DNA from: Spirochaetaceae bacterium
Lineage (GTDB): Bacteria; Spirochaetota; Spirochaetia; DSM-2461
Assembly: GCA_965224705.1 (NCBI GenBank)
Contig: OZ245056.1
Location: 1,504,001-1,568,000 of the forward strand
Reading direction: 5' to 3'
Length of the DNA: 64,000 nucleotides
The notes under the pieces were generated by a model that searched no databases, was not told the DNA's origin, and saw only the letters and a program-made list of their open reading frames with translations. Shown here piece by piece: positions 5,408-37,572 of the stretch (position 1 is its first letter; every line of letters begins with the position of its first letter). A program made the position numbers and the translations under genes.

Positions 5408-7565
5408 CACCGAAAACTATCGCCCCACAACCCCGCTAGAACAAAAATCCGGTCTGGATCTGGAATATGCCGGTGGGCATGAATTCAGAAAAGCTAGGGT
5501 CAAACAAAATAGAAAGCGCACCGCCGATGTCGATGAACCAGCGTTTCTCCGGAGCTACCCGCACACCCAGCCCTAAATCAAAAGGAAAATAACCAACTTC
5601 AAGAAAGTGGGCCATTCCAAAATCAAAACATCCATACACATTCACCGGTATGGCCCAGGCGGTTTTGTAGCGAACACCTGTAGATAATTCCACCCACATG
5701 TCGGTGCTGTTGGTGCCTGCTGAGAAACCCATAGTCCAGGCCCAGTTCCGGCTGAAGTTGCGGGCGTAATGGATGCTACCTCCAACGATGGATGAGTATG
5801 ATAATGAGTATAAGGAGAAATCACTTCTGGCGACAAAGCCTGCAGACAGCTCATGGGACTTGCTGCTTCCCACCAGTCCGCCGGATTTGCCTTTCTCCTG
5901 CCTTACCTCCCCGGTGAAGCTGCCCTCCGGCAGGGAGGTGCGGGCCTCGCCCACCGCCGCTCCCACTTTTTTGCGCCCCTCCACATACACGTCCTCCAGA
6001 ACAATGTCTGTTATGCGGGCCTTATTGCCGGTTCTACCGAACAGCCCCACGTGGTCTTCGGCGGGGCGGGAGATGTAGAGGCGGCTGATTCTGTGGCCGC
6101 TGCCGTCAAAGGTGCCGGTGAATTTTTCTCGCACCGATCCGGCTATGGGCTGGAAGTTGTGATCGCCCAGGCCATCGCCATCGGCATCGGGGAAGCTGAT
6201 ATCGGCCATCTGGGTGTAGGCTCCTGCCGTGTTCTGCCGCATGGCCTGTAGGTCCTGCCAGGCATATATCTCCGATGGGCGGTAGGAAAGCGTGAATTCG
6301 CGGCTGTCGGAGCCGCGGGATAGGACAAGCACCACCGCACTGCGGCCCTGCACCGTGGAGGTGAAGTCCGTTATGTCTTTTGCAAAGAGCTGAAACCGTC
6401 CATCCAGAATTGTCTGGGAGCCGCTTGCACCGCCCATCTGCCACTGATAGCTGCCGCCGGGTACCGGGGCTGCCATAATCACGGGTGTTCCGGCGAGAGA
6501 GGGGTCTTTTATTGCCTGACCCAGGATGCTGTGCTCGCCGGAGTAGGTGCTTAAAACCGCCTCGTCCAGCGATGAGGCGGCGGTGTAGGCGGGCAGATCC
6601 GGCCTGTTGCCGTCCAGGGCCGCTGCCGCGCTGGGTGCACCCGCCGGATCGCCAAAGAAGAAGTTTGATGTCATGCTGGAGTTGCGCCAGGGCACCTGAT
6701 TGCGGTTCATCCTGGTGGTTTCGGCAGTAACCAATTTCATCAGATCGTCCACTTCCAGCCCCGGCTCGCGGATGTAGCTCAGCAGGGCGGCAGTGAAAAA
6801 ACCGTTCCTGCCGGCGGGATTGTCGCCTGCCGTCTTGCCGGGCGAGGTGGAATAGATGATCATGGACTCGGGCGGCTGAACACGGACGATGGCCAGGCCC
6901 TTTTCGCCGCTGCGGGCATAGCCGGGGTAGGGATTGTCGCGGCAGGAATCCAGGATGATAATGTTCTTCTGGTTTCTGGACTGCTCCATCTTGCTCATCA
7001 GCAGATCCACCGGCACGCCAAAGTACTCCAGCTCGTCCTGGCTTTGAATGTCGGCATCAACCGGGATGATGTAGTTCTGGCCGCTTACCTGGGCACCGTG
7101 GCCGGAGTAGTAGAACAGGCCGGTGGAATCCCTGTTCAGGCTGTTGCCGAAGTCACGTACTGCCTGGATGGTTTGCCTCTTGTCGGCATCCACCAGAGTG
7201 GTAACGCTGAACCCCAACTCCGTTAAAACCGCCGACATGTCGGCGGCATCGTTGACGGGGTTCTTCAGCGGATTGGAGGTGTAGGCACTGTTGCCTATCA
7301 CCAGGGCCAGCCGCTCCTGGGCGAACAGGGCTGTGCACATCAGAGACAATAATGTCAGTAAGAAGCATTTTTTCATCATAGCAATCCTTTTGTATCGCAA
7401 TTCACCTGAACGGAACTGGTTTTCAGCCACACCCCAATTCTTACACATTGTTGAAGAACTGTTATAGGAGGCCGCTAAAAACAGTTTTGTGTCCCGAAGA
7501 ACTATAATCATGCATCAAATAAAATTATTACGCAACCCGGAATCTCTCTTCGTCCAGGGGCAATC
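5408..7565. repeat. ~2.2 kb direct duplication, copy A (copy B about 9553-11757)
   Basis: Near-identical DNA covering the caspase gene and ~190 bp upstream; both copies end at a CAGGG(G)CAATC MITE terminus. Confidence 0.9.
5436..7379 (-). CDS. Secreted caspase-like (peptidase C14) protein with GLUG-type region and C-terminal outer-membrane beta-barrel, copy 1
   Basis: Signal peptide MMKKCFLL..ALFA; LALVIGNSAY, YYSGHG, ILDSCR; FTGTFDGSGH..VGLFG; alternating aromatic strands ending in F. Confidence 0.8.
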   Translation of the reverse strand: MMKKCFLLTLLSLMCTALFAQERLALVIGNSAYTSNPLKNPVNDAADMSAVLTELGFSVTTLVDADKRQTIQAVRDFGNSLNRDSTGLFYYSGHGAQVSGQNYIIPVDADIQSQDELEYFGVPVDLLMSKMEQSRNQKNIIILDSCRDNPYPGYARSGEKGLAIVRVQPPESMIIYSTSPGKTAGDNPAGRNGFFTAALLSYIREPGLEVDDLMKLVTAETTRMNRNQVPWRNSSMTSNFFFGDPAGAPSAAAALDGNRPDLPAYTAASSLDEAVLSTYSGEHSILGQAIKDPSLAGTPVIMAAPVPGGSYQWQMGGASGSQTILDGRFQLFAKDITDFTSTVQGRSAVVLVLSRGSDSREFTLSYRPSEIYAWQDLQAMRQNTAGAYTQMADISFPDADGDGLGDHNFQPIAGSVREKFTGTFDGSGHRISRLYISRPAEDHVGLFGRTGNKARITDIVLEDVYVEGRKKVGAAVGEARTSLPEGSFTGEVRQEKGKSGGLVGSSKSHELSAGFVARSDFSLYSLSYSSIVGGSIHYARNFSRNWAWTMGFSAGTNSTDMWVELSTGVRYKTAWAIPVNVYGCFDFGMAHFLEVGYFPFDLGLGVRVAPEKRWFIDIGGALSILFDPSFSEFMPTGIFQIQTGFLF

Positions 7566-9580: not shown

Positions 9581-11572
9581 CTAGAACAAAAAGCCGGTCT
9601 GGATCTGGAATATGCCGGTGGGGATAAATTCAGAATAGCTAAGGCCATACAAAATAGAAAGCGCACCGCCGATGTCGATGAACCAGCGTTTCACCGGGGC
9701 TATCCGCACACCCAGCCCTAAATCCAAAGGCACAGACATAGAAAAACCTCCCCCCGAAAAGTAGGCAATTCCAAGATCCGAATATCCATACACATTCACC
9801 GGGATGGCCCAGGCGGTTTTGTAGCGAACGCCTGTAGAGAATCCCACCCAGGGGTTGTCGGTGTAGGGGTAGGAGAATCTGGTGTCGGTGTAGGTGGAGG
9901 TGCCTGCTGAGAAACCCATAGTCCAGGCCCAGTTCCGGCTGAAGTTGCGGGCATAATGGATGCTTCCTCCAACGATGGATGAGAATGAGTCTGATGTGTA
10001 TGAGAAATCACTCCTGGCGACAAAGCCGACAGACAACTCATGGGACTTGCTGCTTCCCACCAGTTTGCCGGATCTGCCCTTATTCTGCCTTACCTCCCCG
10101 GTGAAGCTGCCCTCCGGCAGGGAGATGCGGGCATCGCCCACCGCTGCTCCCACTTTTTTGCGCCCCTCCACATACACGTCCTCCAGAACAATGTCTGTTA
10201 TGCGGGCCTTATTGCCGGTTCTACCGAACAGCCCCACGTGGTCTTCGGCGGGGCGGGAGATGTAGAGGCGGCTGATACTGTGACCGCTGCCGTCAAAGGT
10301 GCCGGTGAATTCTTTCGCACCGCTCCGGCTATGACCTATGGGTTGGAAGTTGTGATCACCCAGGCCATCGCCATCGGCATCGGGGAAGCTGATATCGGCC
10401 ATCTGGGTGTAGGCCCCCGCCGTGTTCTGCCGCATGGCCTGCAGATCCTGCCAGGCATATATCTCCGATGGGCGGTAGGAAAGCGCGAATTCGCGGCTGT
10501 CGGAGCCGCGGGATAGGACAAGCACCACCGCACTGCGGCCCTGCACCGTGGAGGTGAAGTCTGTTATGTCTTTTGCAAAGAGCTGGAACCGTCCATCCAG
10601 AATTGTTTGGGAGCCGCTTGCACCGCCCAGCTGCCACTGATAGCTGCCGCCGGGTACCGGAGCTGCCGTAATCACGGGTGTTCCGGCGAGAGCGGGGTCT
10701 TTTATTGCCTGACCCAGGATGCTGTGCTCGCCGGAGTAGGTGCTTAAAACCGCCTCGTCCAGCGATGAGGCGGCGGTGTAGGCGGGCAGATCCGGCCTGT
10801 TACCGTCCAGGGCCGCTGCCAGGCTGGGCGTACCCGTCGGATCGCCAAAGAAGAAATTTGATGTCATGCTGGAGTTGCGCCACGGCACCTGATTGCGGTT
10901 CATCCTGGTGGTTTCGGCAGTAACCAATTTCATCAGATCGTCCACTTCCAGCCCCGGCTCGCGGATGTAGCTCAGCAGGGCGGCGGTGAAAAAGCCGTTC
11001 CTGCCAGCGGGATTGTCACCTGCTGTCTTGCCGGGCGAGGTGGAATAGATGATCATGGACTCGGGCGGCTGAACACGGACGATGGCCAGGCCCTTCTCGC
11101 CGCTTCGGGCATAGCCGGGGTAGGGGTTGTCGCGGCAGGAATCCAGGATGATAATGTTCTTCTGGTTTCTGGACTGCTCCATCTTGCTCATCAGCAGATC
11201 CACCGGCACGCCAAAGTACTCCAACTCGTCCTGGCTTTGAATGTCGGCATCAACCGGGATGATGTAGTTCTGGCCGCTTACCTGGGCACCGTGGCCGGAG
11301 TAGTAGAACAGGCCGGTGGAATCCCTGTTCAGGCTGTTGCCAAAGTCGCGCACTGCCTGGATGGTTTGCCTCTTGTCGGCATCCACCAGAGTGGTAACGC
11401 TGAACCCCAACTCCGTTAAAACCGCCGACATGTCGGCGGCATCGTTGACGGGGTTCTTCAGCGGATTGGAGGTGTAGGCACTGTTGCCTATCACCAGGGC
11501 CAGCCGCTCCTGGGCGAACAAAGCCGTGCACATCAGAGACAGTAATGTCAGTAAGAAGCATTTTTTCATCAT
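9581..11572 (-). CDS. Secreted caspase-like (C14)-GLUG-beta-barrel protein, copy 2
   Basis: Caspase domain identical in protein sequence to copy 1; differences cluster in C-terminal barrel loops. Confidence 0.8.
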   Translation of the reverse strand: MMKKCFLLTLLSLMCTALFAQERLALVIGNSAYTSNPLKNPVNDAADMSAVLTELGFSVTTLVDADKRQTIQAVRDFGNSLNRDSTGLFYYSGHGAQVSGQNYIIPVDADIQSQDELEYFGVPVDLLMSKMEQSRNQKNIIILDSCRDNPYPGYARSGEKGLAIVRVQPPESMIIYSTSPGKTAGDNPAGRNGFFTAALLSYIREPGLEVDDLMKLVTAETTRMNRNQVPWRNSSMTSNFFFGDPTGTPSLAAALDGNRPDLPAYTAASSLDEAVLSTYSGEHSILGQAIKDPALAGTPVITAAPVPGGSYQWQLGGASGSQTILDGRFQLFAKDITDFTSTVQGRSAVVLVLSRGSDSREFALSYRPSEIYAWQDLQAMRQNTAGAYTQMADISFPDADGDGLGDHNFQPIGHSRSGAKEFTGTFDGSGHSISRLYISRPAEDHVGLFGRTGNKARITDIVLEDVYVEGRKKVGAAVGDARISLPEGSFTGEVRQNKGRSGKLVGSSKSHELSVGFVARSDFSYTSDSFSSIVGGSIHYARNFSRNWAWTMGFSAGTSTYTDTRFSYPYTDNPWVGFSTGVRYKTAWAIPVNVYGYSDLGIAYFSGGGFSMSVPLDLGLGVRIAPVKRWFIDIGGALSILYGLSYSEFIPTGIFQIQTGFLF

Positions 11573-27125: not shown

Positions 27126-29444
27126 CTATTCCTCGTTGATAATTCGTTTATACAGAACCGGATTCTTTCGAATTCTCCTCGAGATTTTCGCTGATAGGCC
27201 CTTGATTTCCTTCCGGTTTGCTTTCTCTTTCTCATCCTCCAATAGCTCGCAACGAAGGAAAAATTCTTCAAGTAATAATATGTCAGGATAGGTCTTAAAT
27301 ACCTCATCATTGTCGGCCAGATAATCTAGCTTGCCGTTATATGCAAGCAGTAAAGATACAACTAATAGGGAAATTGCGACATTTCTGTCAGTAATGTCTT
27401 TCGCCTTCAATGCGTCATGCACAGACTCGTAGATTTCTGTTAAGTATTTTGATCTGTAATGTAATGCGAACACTTCCATTAGCATTATATATTTAAGCAA
27501 CTTGGGTATTTTGAACTCCTCTGGGATGCTCGAAATGAAATCTTCGATACTATTTGCATACTCCGAGATTGACGCCTGCATCAGATCTTTACGAACACTC
27601 GCATCGGTTTTATAGGATGATTGAATTAAGTATCCAAAGTTCAACAGGTGAAGGAGCTTTTTTTCATCATTGAGATCCGACACTCGACCATATACTTGCT
27701 TTAGGAGATCTTCGTTTTCCTTACGAATGCCACAATAGAAATAAACAACCTGATCCCACCATCCCGATGGTAACAATTTTACGATATCGTTGATATCAGA
27801 TTTCAACGATATCTTTTTGGCGAAGAAATATTCTTGAAAGGATAAATGCCTGAACTCAAATTCCTCGTGCTCGTTCTGGCACAAAAGGTTGGTGTGATTA
27901 ACAAGTTCATCAAGCATTTTTTTCGTATCAAATGTTCTTCCGAGACGTTTTGAAGTCGTTCTAAATACCTCTTGAACTTCCTTTTCGGGACACGACAGTA
28001 CATTCTTCTGATGCATAAAAAAAGCCAAATCCTCTAAGAAAGTTTCTTTGTCGTTGGCTTTATAGAAGGATTCTACTCGTCTATCTAGATTCCATTTTCC
28101 TAATAGCAGATCCGTAAACATAGAGTACAATTCGGATAGATTTGACGGTATTTCAACGTTACTATCTGCATCAAAGAGTATAGCAAGTAAAGTAATAACC
28201 AATGGTGTGTTTGGAAGCTTGTCGAGGAGATTGTGATCCTTGAGATGCTCAACAAGTCTCTCTTTTTTGTTGGAAAACCATTTCCTCACGAAAGAACTAA
28301 TTTGCCGCATGGAGAAGTCGCCAACTTTCCAGGTTCTGTATTCTGATAGAGGATTAGTGGTCTGGAATTTATTGTTTCGCGAAGTTACTACTATGGTGTC
28401 AGCTATCTCTTCTATGTATTCAAGCATTGAGAAGAATGCATCCTTCTCGTTTTGTAGTGTTAATTCATCATAACCGTCAAGAAACACAATAATTTTGTTT
28501 TCGTTGAAGAGCTTATCCAATTCAGTAACGGAAATTGATTGCTCTTTGCTTACATACTCTTTGATGTGTTTTTCTGGAGTGCCTTTAAATTCCCGAACTA
28601 GGTTCTTCAATTTTATCAGTAATGGTATACGACCGACATTCTTAATCTCATAATCTGCGACAAGTCGAAGAGTTAGTGACCTCAAAAGTGTAGTCTTTCC
28701 TGCACCGGCATTCCCTTTAACTAAATAGTGTCCAGGTTTCTCAATCAGTTTTACCAAAGTAGATTTTGTATGTTTTACAGCTGGTTTCTTGTTCTCTATG
28801 ACCTCTTCTTTTCTTATTAGCTTAGGTTCTATGAAAATATCGGAAATTTTCCGTTCTTTCCCGTCATACAAAGAGATGTTATTTAATTCGTTTAATGATT
28901 CACACCTTGTCTTTAGTTGATGAAAATATCTTGATAGTGCTCCGCTTGATACTACATATGCCTCCGGCAGATATATGTCTAGATATCCAATAAGTTCATT
29001 CGTGTCAATATATTCTATATTCGAGAATTTTAGTTGATCTGCCATGTTTACAAAGGCTTCCCGTGCGGAATTGCTGATATTTCCGGAAGATGTCACAATA
29101 ATTGAATTAAAATGCACCTTCTTTTTTTCGAGAAGACTGTCATAGCCTGAATTAATCGTCATTCTGATCTGCTTTTCTACGTTAGCAATGATTTCCTTGT
29201 CCTTTGCACTTGTAGCATTGGTAATATCATCTTTCTTAACGATGACCGCCGTATATTCGTGTCGGTTAAATTTGTTTTTCGAAACAAGAACGATATCCTT
29301 TCCTTTTTCATCGTTCCCATGAGTATCAATCACCGCTTGGAATTCCATATTTCTAAAGAGGGGAATTAAGACTTCCTTGCGGAGGTAATTCTCGTTGGGA
29401 ATGTTCTTCAGGAATGCTGCTTTTTGTGATTGATTCAAGTTCAT
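27126..29444 (-). CDS. Restriction-endonuclease-like + NACHT (STAND) NTPase, putative anti-phage protein
   Basis: N-terminal HGNDEKGKDIV..VIVK; GNAGAGKTT, VFLDGYDE, TSR, NTPL, FRHLSFQEYF; AT-rich relative to flanks. Confidence 0.8.
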   Translation of the reverse strand: MNLNQSQKAAFLKNIPNENYLRKEVLIPLFRNMEFQAVIDTHGNDEKGKDIVLVSKNKFNRHEYTAVIVKKDDITNATSAKDKEIIANVEKQIRMTINSGYDSLLEKKKVHFNSIIVTSSGNISNSAREAFVNMADQLKFSNIEYIDTNELIGYLDIYLPEAYVVSSGALSRYFHQLKTRCESLNELNNISLYDGKERKISDIFIEPKLIRKEEVIENKKPAVKHTKSTLVKLIEKPGHYLVKGNAGAGKTTLLRSLTLRLVADYEIKNVGRIPLLIKLKNLVREFKGTPEKHIKEYVSKEQSISVTELDKLFNENKIIVFLDGYDELTLQNEKDAFFSMLEYIEEIADTIVVTSRNNKFQTTNPLSEYRTWKVGDFSMRQISSFVRKWFSNKKERLVEHLKDHNLLDKLPNTPLVITLLAILFDADSNVEIPSNLSELYSMFTDLLLGKWNLDRRVESFYKANDKETFLEDLAFFMHQKNVLSCPEKEVQEVFRTTSKRLGRTFDTKKMLDELVNHTNLLCQNEHEEFEFRHLSFQEYFFAKKISLKSDINDIVKLLPSGWWDQVVYFYCGIRKENEDLLKQVYGRVSDLNDEKKLLHLLNFGYLIQSSYKTDASVRKDLMQASISEYANSIEDFISSIPEEFKIPKLLKYIMLMEVFALHYRSKYLTEIYESVHDALKAKDITDRNVAISLLVVSLLLAYNGKLDYLADNDEVFKTYPDILLLEEFFLRCELLEDEKEKANRKEIKGLSAKISRRIRKNPVLYKRIINEE

Positions 29445-29614: not shown

Positions 29615-30287
29615 GTGTGCCCAACATGACCAATATCCAGCGGGTGAAAATCCCACAAAGCCCTGATGGGGAGTATTTCAAACTTCATTGAAAAGAAACT
29701 GAAACTCGTTGTCAACGAGGAGAAGAGTAAGACAGAAAAGGCCGATGTTATCAAGTTTCTGGGTATGACTATTGTGGCCGGAATGATCACGATTTCGTCG
29801 GTGTCAATGAGCAGAGCCAATGATATGCTTTGTGAATTGATTCCCAGACGGACGAATCAGTCTATTGAGGCTACAGTGGAAAAGCTGAATATCTGGTACC
29901 GGGGCTGGAGCGGATATTACGGTATGACCGAAGATAAGCGCCAGCTTCAAAGGGTGGAAGCCCATGCCAGAAGGCGATTGAGATCCCGAATAGTGTATGA
30001 GCACAAGAGGCCCCGAAATCTGAAACGCACCCTGTTAAAAAGGGGAGTATCAGAGTATGCGGCCAATCGAATTATCAACAATAAGGGTATCTGGGCGACT
30101 TCAAGGAGTCCGGCTATGCACAAAGCTTTTCCCAATCGCTATTTCATTGAAGAACTCGGGCAGTTTATCTATTCAGCCTGAGACTGAAAGAAATTGGACA
30201 CATGCATGAGGAGCCGTGTACGGACCCGTACGCACGGTTCTGTGAGAGGACGGCATCCCTGCTTTCGCAGGGTGCCTCCTACTCGAT
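29615..30287 (+). mobile_element. Internally deleted group II intron (IIC-like)
   Basis: 5' end GTGTGCCCAACATG..GGGTGAAAATCCC; domain V GAGCCGTGTACGGACCCGTACGCACGGTTC (30211-30240); domain VI ending CCTACTCGAT at 30287. Confidence 0.8.
29666..30181 (+). pseudogene. C-terminal fragment of group II intron RT/maturase (RT7 + thumb/X)
   Basis: LKLVVNEEKS..KFLG..RGWSGYY..RRRLR; no YADD motif or upstream RT domains. Confidence 0.88.
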
Positions 30288-32630: not shown

Positions 32631-34001
32631 CTAGAAGATTCCAGGGAACACCTTATACTTCACCTGATTCCTATACTCCTGCCAGTATTCACCATATTTC
32701 AGAGCACAGCGTTTTTCATCTCTTCCAGCCCTATCCATGAGAAGTATGAAAAGAAAGATCAGGTAGAACCAGGGCAGCAAGTGCCGGAATCCCGCCGGAA
32801 TCGTCCATGCTGCGGCCAGCATAAGTTCAGGAACATAATGGAAATGCCGCGCCATTCCCCACCAGCCGCTGGCTAACAGTGGGTTTGTATGAGTTTCACT
32901 ATCTGAAGTTGTGTATCGGGCATGGATGATGCGTGGAGTCTTCCCCCAAATCTTCACTTCGGCGCCCTTATCCCGTATCCTCTGCCTTTGTCTGTCCGCA
33001 TCAAAGTTTATTCCGATACTGACTATCCCCAGTATAACGACAACCGCGGCCGCAAGCGGATTGAGGTAACCTCCATGGTCAACGAGATAAAATGCGGCCA
33101 AACAGTATAGGGAGGGAACCCAGACGAGAACCCCCCAGCAGATATAGTAGCCGAATCGATCATGCATGATGTCGGTGGAGTACAAATAGCCGCGTTCCCA
33201 CACGAAAAACTTGAACAGATACACGACCAATATCGCTACCGAAGCTATCATGGAAGGAGTGACAGCTCCATGGATGTCCCATTGGGAGACGAGGAAACTC
33301 AACGCAATAACCGACCAGCCCATCATGGAAACTCGGCAGTTGATCAATTGCTTCAGGGAAGTTCCGGCCATCATAGGATAGAGTTCAATCCCCTGAAAAA
33401 AATCGAAGAGCAAGCTGCCGCTGTATACGGCGTCGGTGCTGCTGGGGATGCACCTTCCCTTTATGTACAGCAAAATACAAACGCACAGTGCTCCCAGGTT
33501 GAGTGTGATGAGAAGAGAGCCGTACAGGGGGTATAATTTGGCCGGATTCAGTATCCCCAGAGGATAGAAAATGCCGAACAGGAGTCCATGGGTCACCACC
33601 CATGAGAATGGCCCATTATACTTATAGGTCGGTCTCTTTCCGGTGGGAGTGATGGGGCCTTCACCTGTTCTTCCGGGAAGATACCGAAGCAAACCCCACT
33701 GTGCCAGCATCCAGGCCAATATGATAATCACCGCCTTCAAGCTGGGTTTGGGGAATCGCGATAACCATTCTCCCGGTCCGGCGCGGAAGAAGGCGAGAAT
33801 TGAGCCGTCGAAATATGCGGCGGTCATCCACATCATGATTGATAGAAAAGGAGTGCTCAGCATGAGCAATAAAGGTCCCAGCCACCTTCGAAACGGATGA
33901 ATCTCCAGGGTACTTTTTACAGGCCGCGGAGGTAGGGCCGCCCCTTTGGGCAAACCGGAAAGAATAGATTGCCAAGCGGAGGATACATGGGGTTGATTCA
34001 T
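32631..34001 (-). CDS. ERG4/ERG24-family sterol reductase, 7-dehydrocholesterol-reductase-like
   Basis: DFFQGIELYP, DIMHDRFGYYICWG, LLASGWWGMARHFHYVPE, RDEKRCALKYG..W..Y; multiple TM helices. Confidence 0.9.
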   Translation of the reverse strand: MNQPHVSSAWQSILSGLPKGAALPPRPVKSTLEIHPFRRWLGPLLLMLSTPFLSIMMWMTAAYFDGSILAFFRAGPGEWLSRFPKPSLKAVIIILAWMLAQWGLLRYLPGRTGEGPITPTGKRPTYKYNGPFSWVVTHGLLFGIFYPLGILNPAKLYPLYGSLLITLNLGALCVCILLYIKGRCIPSSTDAVYSGSLLFDFFQGIELYPMMAGTSLKQLINCRVSMMGWSVIALSFLVSQWDIHGAVTPSMIASVAILVVYLFKFFVWERGYLYSTDIMHDRFGYYICWGVLVWVPSLYCLAAFYLVDHGGYLNPLAAAVVVILGIVSIGINFDADRQRQRIRDKGAEVKIWGKTPRIIHARYTTSDSETHTNPLLASGWWGMARHFHYVPELMLAAAWTIPAGFRHLLPWFYLIFLFILLMDRAGRDEKRCALKYGEYWQEYRNQVKYKVFPGIF

Positions 34002-34730: not shown

Positions 34731-34745
34731 AATTTGGTGGATAGA

Positions 34746-34946
34746 AGCTGGCTGAATACAGCGGAAATAGAATTAAGTGCCTATAAGCGGCAATGTCTCA
34801 ATCGCCGGATACCAACCATTGAACAACTGGTTCAGGAAACAGAAATGTTAAATTGGGATAGAAATAACTCTGCAAATAAAGTCGATTGGCCGTTTACCGC
34901 CAAGGATGCTCGGATAAAGCTGAAAAGACTTTATCTGCAGGTTTAG
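34746..34946 (+). pseudogene. IS630-family transposase C-terminal fragment
   Basis: SWLNTAEIELS..RQCLNRRI..VDWPFT..DARIKLKRLY. Confidence 0.8.
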
Positions 34947-34963
34947 GGATTATAAGGTACTAG

Positions 34964-35169
34964 GAGTCTATCGGGCTTACGCCTCACGGCTTGATTTCTG
35001 CCCTTCTCTCCAGAGCCGACTTCGTTCGTTTCCGCCGCCATCCGCGGCAGCTTTTCCTCGCATCGCTCGGCACTCTCTTCGTTTTTGCCTGCCTGTCGGC
35101 AGACAGGTCGCCCTGCATCAGGAAAAAATCATCAAAAACCGCCTTGAAGTCTCAAAGTCCGACAGACTC
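34964..35169 (-). mobile_element. IS1182-type MITE
   Basis: GAGTCTATCGGGCTT / AAGTCCGACAGACTC ends, flanked by CTAG and CTGG. Confidence 0.8.
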
Positions 35170-35225
35170 CTGGTGCGGCGGATAAGCACTCCGTACTTAT
35201 CTCAAAAGGTAAAAAGGTAAAAAAT

Positions 35226-35360
35226 TTACGTCCTCCGAACGGGGCGAAAGTCGAGGTTGTTGTTGCTATTGCCAGGCGAATTGTTGTTACGATTGGCAGA
35301 CCGCAAGTTCCTGCCGTTGTTGTTCCAGCTGCCGCCGCGATTCACGCGGTTCAACCCGCT
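35226..35360 (-). repeat. DGR template-repeat (TR)-like sequence
   Basis: 135 nt colinear with 35743-35877; 14 AAY codons (NRVNRGGSWNNNGRNLRSANRNNNSPGNSNNN). Confidence 0.85.
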
Positions 35361-35699
35361 TACGAACCGTTTCCTTTTCTTGTTAGTAAAATATGAAATC
35401 AGAAATTCCGTGTCAGAGGATTGACACGATGAAGATGTTATAGATAATGCTCCTGGTTCTTGGCTCTCATAGCCGCATATTATCATTTAACCATGATAAT
35501 GGCCACACCAAATACCCCAAAATCCAAAAAAAATTTCGGTCCGCCTGCGGCGGACAGACCTGCTGGCACCGGGCCTTCGGCCTGGCACCGGCAGGTAAGG
35601 TGCACGGGCGTAAAGCCCGTGCGTTTTTATTAAAGCCGCCTGACGGCGGCTTTAAAGGTGAGCCTTCGGCTCCTCTTCCTCCATGCCGCTAGCGCGGCG

Positions 35700-35720
35700 G
35701 ATAAGCACTTCGTGCTTATC
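35700..35720 (-). other. DGR target-type hairpin GATAAGCAC-GAA-GTGCTTATC; second copy at 35181-35201
   Basis: Perfect 9-bp stem with GAA triloop 22 nt after the target stop codon. Confidence 0.75.
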
Positions 35721-35742
35721 TCAAAAGGTAAAAAAACAAAAT

Positions 35743-35877
35743 TTACGTCCTCCGAACGGGGCGGAAACCTTGGTTGACGATGCTAAGGCTAGGCGAATTG
35801 TGGCCCCGATCCGCCGACCGGAGGTAACGGGCATCGAAGTACCAACTACCGCCACGGCCCACACGGCGCGACCCGCT
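35743..35877 (-). repeat. DGR variable-repeat (VR)-like 3' end of target gene
   Basis: 12 of the 14 TR AAY codons are replaced here. Confidence 0.85.
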
Positions 35878-37572
35878 AGACGGCCCACTTGGGTCTCTCT
35901 GACTCCCGCGTGAATAATCCCCATACCAATCCCAGCACCATTCCCAGACATTCCCATGCATATCATACAAACCATTCGCATTCGGAGAAAAACTTCCCAC
36001 CGGCATTGTTTGCTCTCGATATACCCCCTTAGACGCTCCTCCATAGGGATAGTTTCCATTAAAATTTGCCTGGCGGCTGTTTAGGCTATTCCCATAGTGA
36101 AACGCCGTCGTTGTTCCTCCCCGTGCCGCATACTCCCATTCAGCCTCCGTCGGCAAGCGGTACCCATCCGCACTCCAGTTCGCCGTTACACGGCTGCCGT
36201 TTATCCGGTACACCGGTGTTCGGCCTTCCTTCTTGCTTAACCAATTGCAGTACTCCACCGCGTCAAACCAGCTAACGCAGGTTACAGGGCTGCTGTCAGT
36301 CTGTGAAAACCCTGGATTCCGCCAATTCGCATTTGGGTCTTTATTCCAATTGCTTCCATTCCAAACATAAGCCCCGCCGTCCCGTTCTGCCTGGGACTCA
36401 TAACCCTCAGCCCGCACAAAGGCTCGAAATTCTCCGACGGTCACCTCGGTCGCCTTCATATAAAACGATCCCACCGTTACGCTGTGCACCGGCCCTTCAC
36501 CGTCATCTCGGCCATCCTCACTGGAAGGGCTCCCCATCCGAAACGTCCCCCCCTCCACTAGAACATAACCATCAGGCACATCAGGCCGCTCCACCCAGCT
36601 AAAGGCCACCGCCAGGGAGCGGTTTTCCTGTACCGTGATGGTTTTGCTTTCGCTTTGGCCCCCGTAGCGCATCTCCAGGTTATGCCGACCGGCGGGAATG
36701 TCGGTGAGCTTGGCCCTGGAACCGGTTGGAATACGGCCCATGGATTTTCCATTCAGGTACAGGGTGCCCGGTGTTTGAACCGATACCTCCAGGCTGCCGT
36801 AGCTCTGCTCCAGGCTGAACGATGGGGCATTGGGGCGGGCAGGCGCGGAACCCGAGGCTCCGGCCAGGTAGATGTCGGTTAAAAGCTGGCTGTATTCGCC
36901 AGGGCTCTGCCTGCCCCCGGAAGAGGCGAGCACGTCTGCACGGGTGCGCTGAAGCACCTGGTTCAGGCTCCAGCCCGACCGGGTAAGGTACTTGAGAAGG
37001 GTGGGTGTGAACAGCCCGTCCCTGGCCGATTCTCCCGCATCGGCGGCGTACACAACCAGGCTGTTACGGGGGGGCTTTATACGGGCAAGGCCCCGCTCCC
37101 CGCCCCGGCCAAAGGGGTTGTTCCGGCAGGCATCCAGTATGATCACGCTGGTGTCCGGACCCGATGATTCAATGGCCGATGTTACCTCCGACACGCTGAT
37201 TCCCCGGGAACGGGCCCGCCGTTCATCGGGAATAGCCGTTTCCGTGGGCAGCAGGTAGTTTTCTCCATCCACCTGCACTCCGTGGCCCCCGTAGTGGAAC
37301 AGGGCAATGCCGCCTCGCTGCTTTACCTTGTTTTCAAACATCTCCAACAGGGCGTAAAAACGGTCCTGGCTCTGCACGTTGTAGGCCCGGATCACCTCGA
37401 AACCGATGCTTTCCAGGGCGTCGGCCATCTTCCTGGCCTCGGGCACCGGGTTGGCCAGTGCGGAAAAGTCATTCTCGTACTGGCCGTTGCCGACGACCAA
37501 TGCGGTTTTGTTCTGGGCCGAAAGGATGGCCGCTGTGAACATCAGGGTGACTACGAGGATGGTTTTTTTCAT
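35743..37572 (-). CDS. Secreted caspase-like (C14)-PEGA-FGE/SUMF1 (C-type lectin fold) protein; DGR-type target
   Basis: Signal peptide; HYGGHG, ILDACR; GGTFRMGS, YRLPTEAEWEYAARGG, GLYDMHGNVWEWC, RGGSW, GFRPV. Confidence 0.9.
   Translation of the reverse strand: MKKTILVVTLMFTAAILSAQNKTALVVGNGQYENDFSALANPVPEARKMADALESIGFEVIRAYNVQSQDRFYALLEMFENKVKQRGGIALFHYGGHGVQVDGENYLLPTETAIPDERRARSRGISVSEVTSAIESSGPDTSVIILDACRNNPFGRGGERGLARIKPPRNSLVVYAADAGESARDGLFTPTLLKYLTRSGWSLNQVLQRTRADVLASSGGRQSPGEYSQLLTDIYLAGASGSAPARPNAPSFSLEQSYGSLEVSVQTPGTLYLNGKSMGRIPTGSRAKLTDIPAGRHNLEMRYGGQSESKTITVQENRSLAVAFSWVERPDVPDGYVLVEGGTFRMGSPSSEDGRDDGEGPVHSVTVGSFYMKATEVTVGEFRAFVRAEGYESQAERDGGAYVWNGSNWNKDPNANWRNPGFSQTDSSPVTCVSWFDAVEYCNWLSKKEGRTPVYRINGSRVTANWSADGYRLPTEAEWEYAARGGTTTAFHYGNSLNSRQANFNGNYPYGGASKGVYREQTMPVGSFSPNANGLYDMHGNVWEWCWDWYGDYSRGSQRDPSGPSSGSRRVGRGGSWYFDARYLRSADRGHNSPSLSIVNQGFRPVRRT

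Follow-up and report, generated by a model that had tools for sequence, protein, structure and literature searches.

What is a template for mutagenesis doing beside a gene when nothing nearby could copy it? The question arises from a locus in a spirochaete chromosome, within the 64-kb stretch analyzed here (the window, G000:C1:1504001-1568000, G000 being the genome under study). A gene for a caspase-like protein with a formylglycine-generating enzyme (FGE)-type, C-type lectin (CLec) domain ends there in a candidate variable repeat (VR) and is followed by a similar repeat rich in AAY codons, the candidate template repeat (TR). Such a pair would be the signature of a diversity-generating retroelement (DGR); neither a reverse transcriptase (RT) nor avd was matched within the window, as the initial annotation had also reported. 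The pair is a real TR/VR, and quite probably part of a decayed copy of a chromosomal DGR with several targets. What the gene encodes would be a caspase-like protease, likely exported, whose lectin-fold tip varies among strains, mainly at codons with template adenines. Its VR probably came from a third template, and the gene is probably frozen in this genome.

The repeat pair and the DGR parts of the genome

A formal alignment of TR and VR is gap-free over 45 codons and returns exactly the counts that had been made by hand: 14 AAY codons in the TR, 12 of them replaced in the gene, and mismatches at 20/37 TR adenines versus 19/98 other bases (Fisher p=2.0e-4), with 14 of the 19 non-adenine mismatches at third codon positions. 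The adenine enrichment holds, yet the pair is not clean. The Asn-rich TR is not ordinary coding sequence, because the 92 of 120 listed homologs that carry the VR motif in their C-termini have 0-5 Asn there, against 14 in the TR. In the 83 aligned homologs, hand-picked from the 120 for near-full coverage, entropy is 3.4 bits at the TR-Asn columns and 1.43 at other VR columns. The DGR signature claimed in the initial annotation is thereby borne out.

The remaining parts of the system lie elsewhere in G000 (3.0 Mb, a single contig, 47% G+C, 95.2% complete), where a genome-wide search had been recommended. BLASTN of the genome finds a second TR, the main TR, at C1:2210369, 92% identical to the window TR, and four more VR-like gene ends. 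The main TR belongs to a paralogous cassette (Table 1) whose avd, at C1:2211243, scores 90.1 bits against the NCBIfam cut-off of 80. The RT of this cassette is split at C1:2211910 by a 165-bp miniature inverted-repeat transposable element (MITE), present in 102 genome copies at >=80% length, which gives 5 in-frame stops; the HRDC-like gene, so labeled by inspection, lacks a start codon and is itself split, by a different repeat. The genome's second DGR-type RT (C1:526641), 3′ of an HRDC gene at C1:526276, is interrupted by a third repeat and stops at position 229 of a 336-aa homolog, and BLASTN of the genome found no TR near it. Searches with PF00078 and tblastn found no further DGR-type RT, and so no intact one, on the one contig of this 95.2% complete genome. 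Three more RTs, 426-aa frames 24-26% identical to the DGR RT, are likely group II intron RTs. Accessory genes are present in trans only, as the avd and HRDC genes just mentioned, and none lies within the window.

Because both DGR RTs of the genome are interrupted, the window gene is likely frozen in G000. The window locus lacks two features of a DGR, an intact RT and a donor-type TR end, and the most fitting name for it is that of an orphaned target beside a relic TR. The choice offered earlier, between a decayed element and the remote target of another TR/RT, dissolves: the locus appears to be a decayed copy, and its target to have been rewritten in trans, as the VRs of its orthologs fit the main TR (see below). 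MITE and IS630 debris had been proposed to follow the TR, and a MITE and a transposase fragment do lie there; the fragment has no match of its own to PF13358 and was identified through a DDE_3-positive genome copy, DDE_3 corresponding to the IS630 family.

Table 1. Features of the window locus (positions in the window) and of the main cassette (genome positions).
Feature	Position	Strand	Basis or description
Target gene, 609 aa	35743..37572	-	signal-peptide-like start, caspase-like domain, weak PEGA-like linker, FGE/CLec domain ending in VR
Likely Sec signal peptide, aa 1-19	37516..37572	-	inspection and hydropathy
Peptidase_C14 domain, MALT1-like, aa 22-233	36874..37509	-	PF00656, E 1.7e-24
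PEGA-like segment, aa 270-321	36610..36765	-	PF08308, E 0.019, 15.3 bits, under family cut-off of 20.8
FGE-sulfatase/CLec domain, aa 335-607	35752..36570	-	PF03781, E 5e-66; TvpA 2y3c, E 2.4e-26
VR, with IMH-like constant 3′ end	35743..35877	-	sequence comparison
Hairpin 3′ of VR, perfect 9-bp stem, 3-nt loop	35700..35720	-	fold of 66-nt region
VR-to-TR spacer	35361..35699	-	BLASTN, 86-90% to main-cassette spacer C1:2209903-2210368
TR copy, 14 AAY codons, VR-type IMH at end	35226..35360	-	sequence comparison
VR-type hairpin behind TR, one stem mismatch	35181..35201	-	z -1.0
MITE	34963..35173	.	>100 relatives in genome; family that also interrupts the DGR RT at C1:2211910
C-terminal fragment, DDE_3-type (IS630-like) transposase	34734..34943	+	85% identical to DDE_3-positive genome copy
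Main (paralogous) cassette, 670 kb from window locus	C1:2208082-2212753		caspase-FGE gene of 606 aa, spacer, TR, HRDC-like remnant, avd, RT
IMH, initiation of mutagenic homing.

Some observations touch on these DGR parts. A third relic (C1:1005663-1008089) consists of a TR/VR pair of another type, presumably with a DUF1566-like VR, and an avd interrupted by a transposase; no RT was found there. All three DGR loci are struck by MITEs or insertion sequences (IS), and the heavy MITE load of G000 would suit an early stage of host-restricted decay. At C1:2210185-2210275, on the upstream side of the main TR, a 7-nt unit is repeated about 13 times, with a single to double copy in the window spacer; this repeat might switch TR expression by slippage. 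Among the targets of the main TR, the cleanest is a 1034-aa protein (C1:2202573-2205677) with caspase, coiled-coil-like, Ig-like, and FGE regions.

Much of this biology is closely precedented, which, together with the relic state of the locus, limits its interest. Published precedents for caspase-FGE targets, remote targets, and loss of the RT in single strains exist for Trichodesmium and Treponema (PMC4143802, PMC4891356, PMC5758913), that of Trichodesmium being nearly complete. In T. erythraeum IMS101, one TR serves at least 12 FGE-type targets (Pfreundt et al., PMC4143802), including the caspase-FGE protein Tery_2077; the RT is broken in the sequenced strain and intact in wild samples; and some VRs carry mostly silent non-adenine changes (PMC4143802). 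Its targets, however, are mostly kinases (PMC4143802), whereas the protein studied here keeps its dyad and has a signal-peptide-like start ahead of the caspase, and it was a MITE that broke the RT. PMC3501461 lists a caspase-FGE protein of T. erythraeum, possibly Tery_2077, in which the dyad is substituted. The TvpA family of Treponema denticola, also a spirochaete, has FGE-type CLec targets with export signals and an HRDC accessory gene, up to seven remote targets, and in isolate SP32 a leftover target that matches another TR type (PMC4891356, PMC5758913). The TvpA-type proteins are characterized as lipoproteins, with no protease domain described in the text available, in contrast to the non-lipidated caspase fusion here, and the main cassette has avd too. 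Lastly, the DGRs of Thiohalocapsa PB-PSB1 resemble the present ones in IS/MITE-driven duplication and breakage of loci, in trans activity, and in having one invariant target; unlike here, its targets are STAND/ternary conflict sensors, and its caspase-like CHAT target is predicted to be cytoplasmic (PMC10907252).

A likely exported protease with a variable head

What would such an element diversify? The N-terminus of the target is hydrophobic (2.56 over 10 residues, against 0.64 for the best later 19-mer), and hydropathy shows no later membrane anchor along the 609-aa chain. By a hydropathy rule, 81/83 homologs have the same basic-hydrophobic N-terminus. The only Cys residues are at 149, 432, 442, and 546; with none before residue 149, the protein is therefore not a lipoprotein. 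On these sequence features it is likely exported via Sec.

An intact His/Cys caspase domain had been read from the sequence, and His97, Asp147, Cys149, and Arg150 are indeed invariant in 83/83 aligned homologs. All ten matches of the domain in the PDB are MALT1 (best E 1.9e-6), aligned at the His and Cys motifs. Among homologs the acidic Glu45, Asp147, and Asp185 are conserved, which would have an S1-pocket role, as in MALT1. Of the caspase-PEGA-FGE architecture that had been proposed, the two outer domains stand and the PEGA segment is seen only below threshold. Judged from its matches, the C-terminus is a CLec fold. The active-site cysteine pair of the formylglycine-generating enzyme, which we take to sit near the C-terminus, was not found in the target, there being no Cys in aa 566-609. 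Compared with its paralogs by 90-nt block, the FGE domain is a mosaic of 50-98% identity. Elsewhere in the window lie two Peptidase_C14 genes without an FGE domain (5436-7511 and 9581-11572, minus strand), and the whole genome has seven caspase domains.

Caspase-FGE fusions are widespread (1,634 homologs at E<=1e-60 among 8,000 scored) yet annotated as formylglycine enzymes. The closest named homologs are mostly from Spirochaetia, so that the bacterium is likely a spirochaete. The metacaspase-FGE-sulfatase architecture made up 33/671 prokaryotic caspase homologs in PMC3501461, where the FGE domain was taken as an enzyme; here it appears as a hypervariable binding domain, with a VR that lacks Cys. 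Cyanobacterial orthocaspase-CLec variable proteins likewise join a caspase to a diversified CLec and have remote targets and nearby transposases, but they are described as mostly cytosolic, with caspase and signal peptide in different proteins among the rows covered (PMC7517822). Two protease-containing FGE target types have been noted (PMC5758913). In the parts available of the literature on signal-peptide FGE-sulfatase and caspase proteins no link to a DGR was found, and the literature searched held nothing on DGRs of symbiotic or mollusc spirochaetes. Nor did we find in print an exported caspase-FGE DGR target with an intact His/Cys dyad from a likely mollusc-associated spirochaete, although the target tables of Wu, Roux, and Dore et al. 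may list such.

MALT1 and the orthocaspases cleave after Arg or Lys and are activated by clustering. By analogy with Mtd and TvpA, the VR would choose the ligand. We therefore picture an exported protein whose variable lectin domain selects a ligand. On binding, the protease would either be delivered to that ligand or be activated by clustering, to cut after Arg/Lys; DGR activity would then retarget the protease. Taken alone, this function of a ligand-directed exported protease stands at about an even chance. We nevertheless favor it over a doubtful alternative, in which the protein is a periplasmic anti-phage or cell-death sensor, as are conflict-system DGR targets of multicellular bacteria, and is not aimed at host or outside proteins. 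That alternative draws on the reading of CHAT/TIR/STAND DGR targets, some of them exported, as antigen sensors (PMC10907252), and on the NACHT protein and two more caspase genes in the window. But no adapter, MoxR, or effector gene adjoins the target among the window open reading frames examined, the protein has no membrane anchor for signaling inward, and the targets of a congener include many non-caspase proteins with secretion-like starts, as do Treponema surface targets.

This congener, G012, shows what an unbroken system looks like. An avd match occurs in 7/41 genomes, five of them, G000 included, in the same genus. G012 has an intact-looking HRDC-RT-TR DGR (G012:C2:388120-391262) with an open 336-aa RT and a TR of 13 AAY codons. 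Directly downstream lies a 574-aa signal-peptide caspase-FGE gene with 14/32 A and 1/97 other mismatches to the TR, and a remote 605-aa paralog has 13 A and 0 non-A mismatches. The TR matches 25 other places, some of them fragments or duplicates; among 22 examined, 18 have <=4 non-A mismatches and 11 have <=1, and four loci carry in-frame 3- or 6-nt indels in the VR. The most non-adjacent targets given by Wu et al. are seven (PMC5758913). In another congener, G009, VRs at C1:163162, 418269, and 446686 match the TR of G012 at 0, 0, and 3 non-A mismatches; neither a TR nor an RT of the G012 type was found in G009, and these three are likely transferred or orphaned targets. In a survey of 80 related loci in other genomes, the caspase-FGE fusion occurred in 6/80 and an RT plus TR beside FGE targets in 4/80. 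None of the six fusion loci had an RT within the flank fetched, so that at this range the DGR link is not general for the fusion.

It is tempting, if speculative and rather unlikely to hold in full, to liken the system of this host-associated spirochaete genus to an arsenal of antibodies. A single DGR would diversify as many as about 18 lectin-fold proteins, all exported and several carrying an active MALT1-like protease, and would retarget the secreted protease to new host or competitor proteins, while templates of different DGR lineages would overwrite each other's targets by way of the IMH they share. In the literature as far as covered, no job has been established for exported caspase-like proteins of bacteria, and as a DGR target the signal-peptide caspase-FGE form is recast as a protease with a variable binding head.

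Other strains and the sampled population

The window protein clusters with two proteins from other records, P0001 and P0123. From P0001 it differs at 15/565 body and 19/44 VR residues (p=3e-15), and from P0123 at 9/194 and 15/44. This divergence focused on the VR identifies the window gene as a true DGR target. Changes at TR adenines alone lead from the main TR to each of the 39 scored VR residues of P0001 and to 38 of those of P0123; three residues of the window VR cannot be reached in this way. The three proteins form a natural allele series, a constant protease with changes confined to the tip, which makes the question of the ligand testable. It must be weighed against this that P0001 and P0123 are known as proteins without DNA context, so that their orthology rests on 94-96% identity and a common FGE subtype.

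Other records also hold intact RTs. The RT cluster there has five members and the avd cluster seven. P0126 (332 aa) and P0246 (345 aa) are full-length RTs, the former 95% identical over its C-terminal half to the interrupted RT of G000; together with the shorter P0249 and P0247 they read through the MITE insertion site, and P0248 is internally deleted. Table values suggest that one other assembly has two avd and two RT copies and that another has an avd and the start of a window-type gene.

Does diversification of the gene, then, continue in the sampled population, driven by cells or by co-occurring strains that keep an intact RT, the MITE being a recent allele of one assembly? Eight of 12 listed runs carry a mollusc metagenome label, two of these cover the gene in pieces, and the bacterium is likely mollusc-associated. 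Ongoing diversification would suit the intact RT orthologs in at least three other records, the perfect hairpin and IMH kept at the window VR, and the intact structural variants described by Dore et al. at broken loci (PMC10907252). We think it unlikely all the same. A single round of homing from either TR of G000 would wipe out most of the 19 non-A differences, which are all still there, and the HRDC-like gene is likewise interrupted, without a start. One contig of run X1 covers the window VR completely and shows 0 differences in 161 nt; the adjoining 176 nt likewise show none, while other contigs over the gene body differ at 5/234 and 15/437 bases. These data are contigs, and none of the 40 difference rows listed, out of 315, falls in the VR. 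Two things speak against a frozen gene: the exact-VR contig of X1 has a depth of 11, below the 28-37 of unique gene parts, leaving room for alleles below the 85% cut-off; and two joints, in runs X3 and X8, carry other VR alleles, though they may belong to paralogs.

Templates of the variable repeats

If the adjacent TR did not write the window VR, which template did? TRs and VRs were compared over 118 nt, comprising 33 TR adenines and 85 other sites. VR2205543 and the main TR are a clean pair (14/33 A and 2/85 non-A differences), and VR2209768 and VR2907971 show 5 and 8 non-A differences. The window VR mismatches either TR of G000 at 19/85 non-A sites, in keeping with the earlier view that the adjacent TR was not its last writer. 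The two TRs differ from each other at 10/118 bases. At five of these (sites 81, 87, 90, 105, and 108), VR2209768 and VR2907971 have the window-TR base; at the other five (8, 21, 72, 110, and 114), the window-TR base occurs in no VR, all being private C>T or G>A changes. In our reading, these two distant paralogs once received their 3′ halves from a TR of the window type, which decayed later.

The window VR itself likely came from a third template lineage. Its codons 5-24 carry 7/8 diagnostic bases of four G009 VRs, distinct from both TRs, whereas the other three VRs of G000 carry 0, 1, and 0 of the eight. It may be a mosaic, since codons 25-35 depart from the window TR at a single non-A site and agree with it at 4/5 sites of the window-type allele. 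Several points tell against a third template. DNA searches with the VR, the TR, and the pattern found no such template in 38 family genomes, where only VRs matched, and the pattern had 0 matches in a metagenome scan. The 7/8 test is partly circular: two of those four G009 VRs, together with the window VR, supplied the search pattern, and only 2/8 sites, both shared by the window VR, lie outside it. Codon 36 of the window VR, moreover, does not fit the G009 family. The exact TR pattern had 0 matches in JGI metagenomes.

Alternatively, the adjacent TR could have written the window VR long ago in cis, the 19 non-A differences being drift since the death of the cassette. Non-A differences that are mostly silent, as in the abandoned VRs of Trichodesmium (PMC4143802), would agree with this, as would the fit of codons 25-35. 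We find it improbable. The TR has no more than 5 private changes, and orthologs whose bodies are 97% identical carry VRs that exactly fit the main TR, so that some 12 silent changes in 20 codons could hardly have accumulated in the time available; moreover, the differing bases coincide with the VR family of another species. That there was never a DGR, the TR being a partial duplication of an ordinary FGE gene end, is practically untenable: the window TR does end like the gene, with the last codons, stop, and hairpin of the VRs, but it has 14 Asn codons against <=5 in the 92 listed homolog C-termini, a TR 92% identical to it is followed by avd and RT, and the upstream flank of the window TR is TR spacer and not FGE coding sequence.

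How did a target that a third template likely wrote come to lie beside a relic TR? The constant, IMH-like 3′ end is common to four VRs, and the hairpin behind the window VR (66-nt region, z -4.8; 0/200 shuffles) is, by likeness to BPP-1, a putative target-recognition element. No donor-type end (IMH* without an inverted repeat) was found at the window TR, which has a VR-type end instead: it runs on with the last codons of the VR, the stop, a T-tract, and the hairpin up to the MITE, about 50 nt beyond the stop. Given that donor TRs are described without an inverted repeat (Wu et al., PMC5758913), this tail would most simply be read as the mark of a deletion from TR to VR that took avd and RT with it. 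Set against it are that IMH and IMH* can be identical (Wu et al., PMC5758913), that the TR of G012 likewise runs to the stop codon, and that the 3′ flank of the main TR resembles a low-copy repeat. The first two codons of the main TR's 3′ end also occur in VRs of other assemblies.

The history we propose starts from a full second cassette at the window locus, with target, spacer, TR, accessory genes, and RT. Its TR would have written the two distant paralogs before the machinery was lost, and recombination of the TR end with a downstream VR would have deleted that machinery, leaving the TR with a VR-type tail. MITE and IS insertions and neutral transitions would have built up afterwards. The only yield of a promoter scan was a 9/12 site upstream of the TR.

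Among the neighboring genes, the NACHT-domain protein (772 aa, 27126-29444, minus strand) is possibly a defence gene, and a group II intron maturase fragment (29666-30181) adjoins it. An ERG4/ERG24 sterol-reductase-like gene (E 5e-65) occupies 32631-34001 on the minus strand; genes of this type are unusual in bacteria and suggestive of life with a eukaryote.

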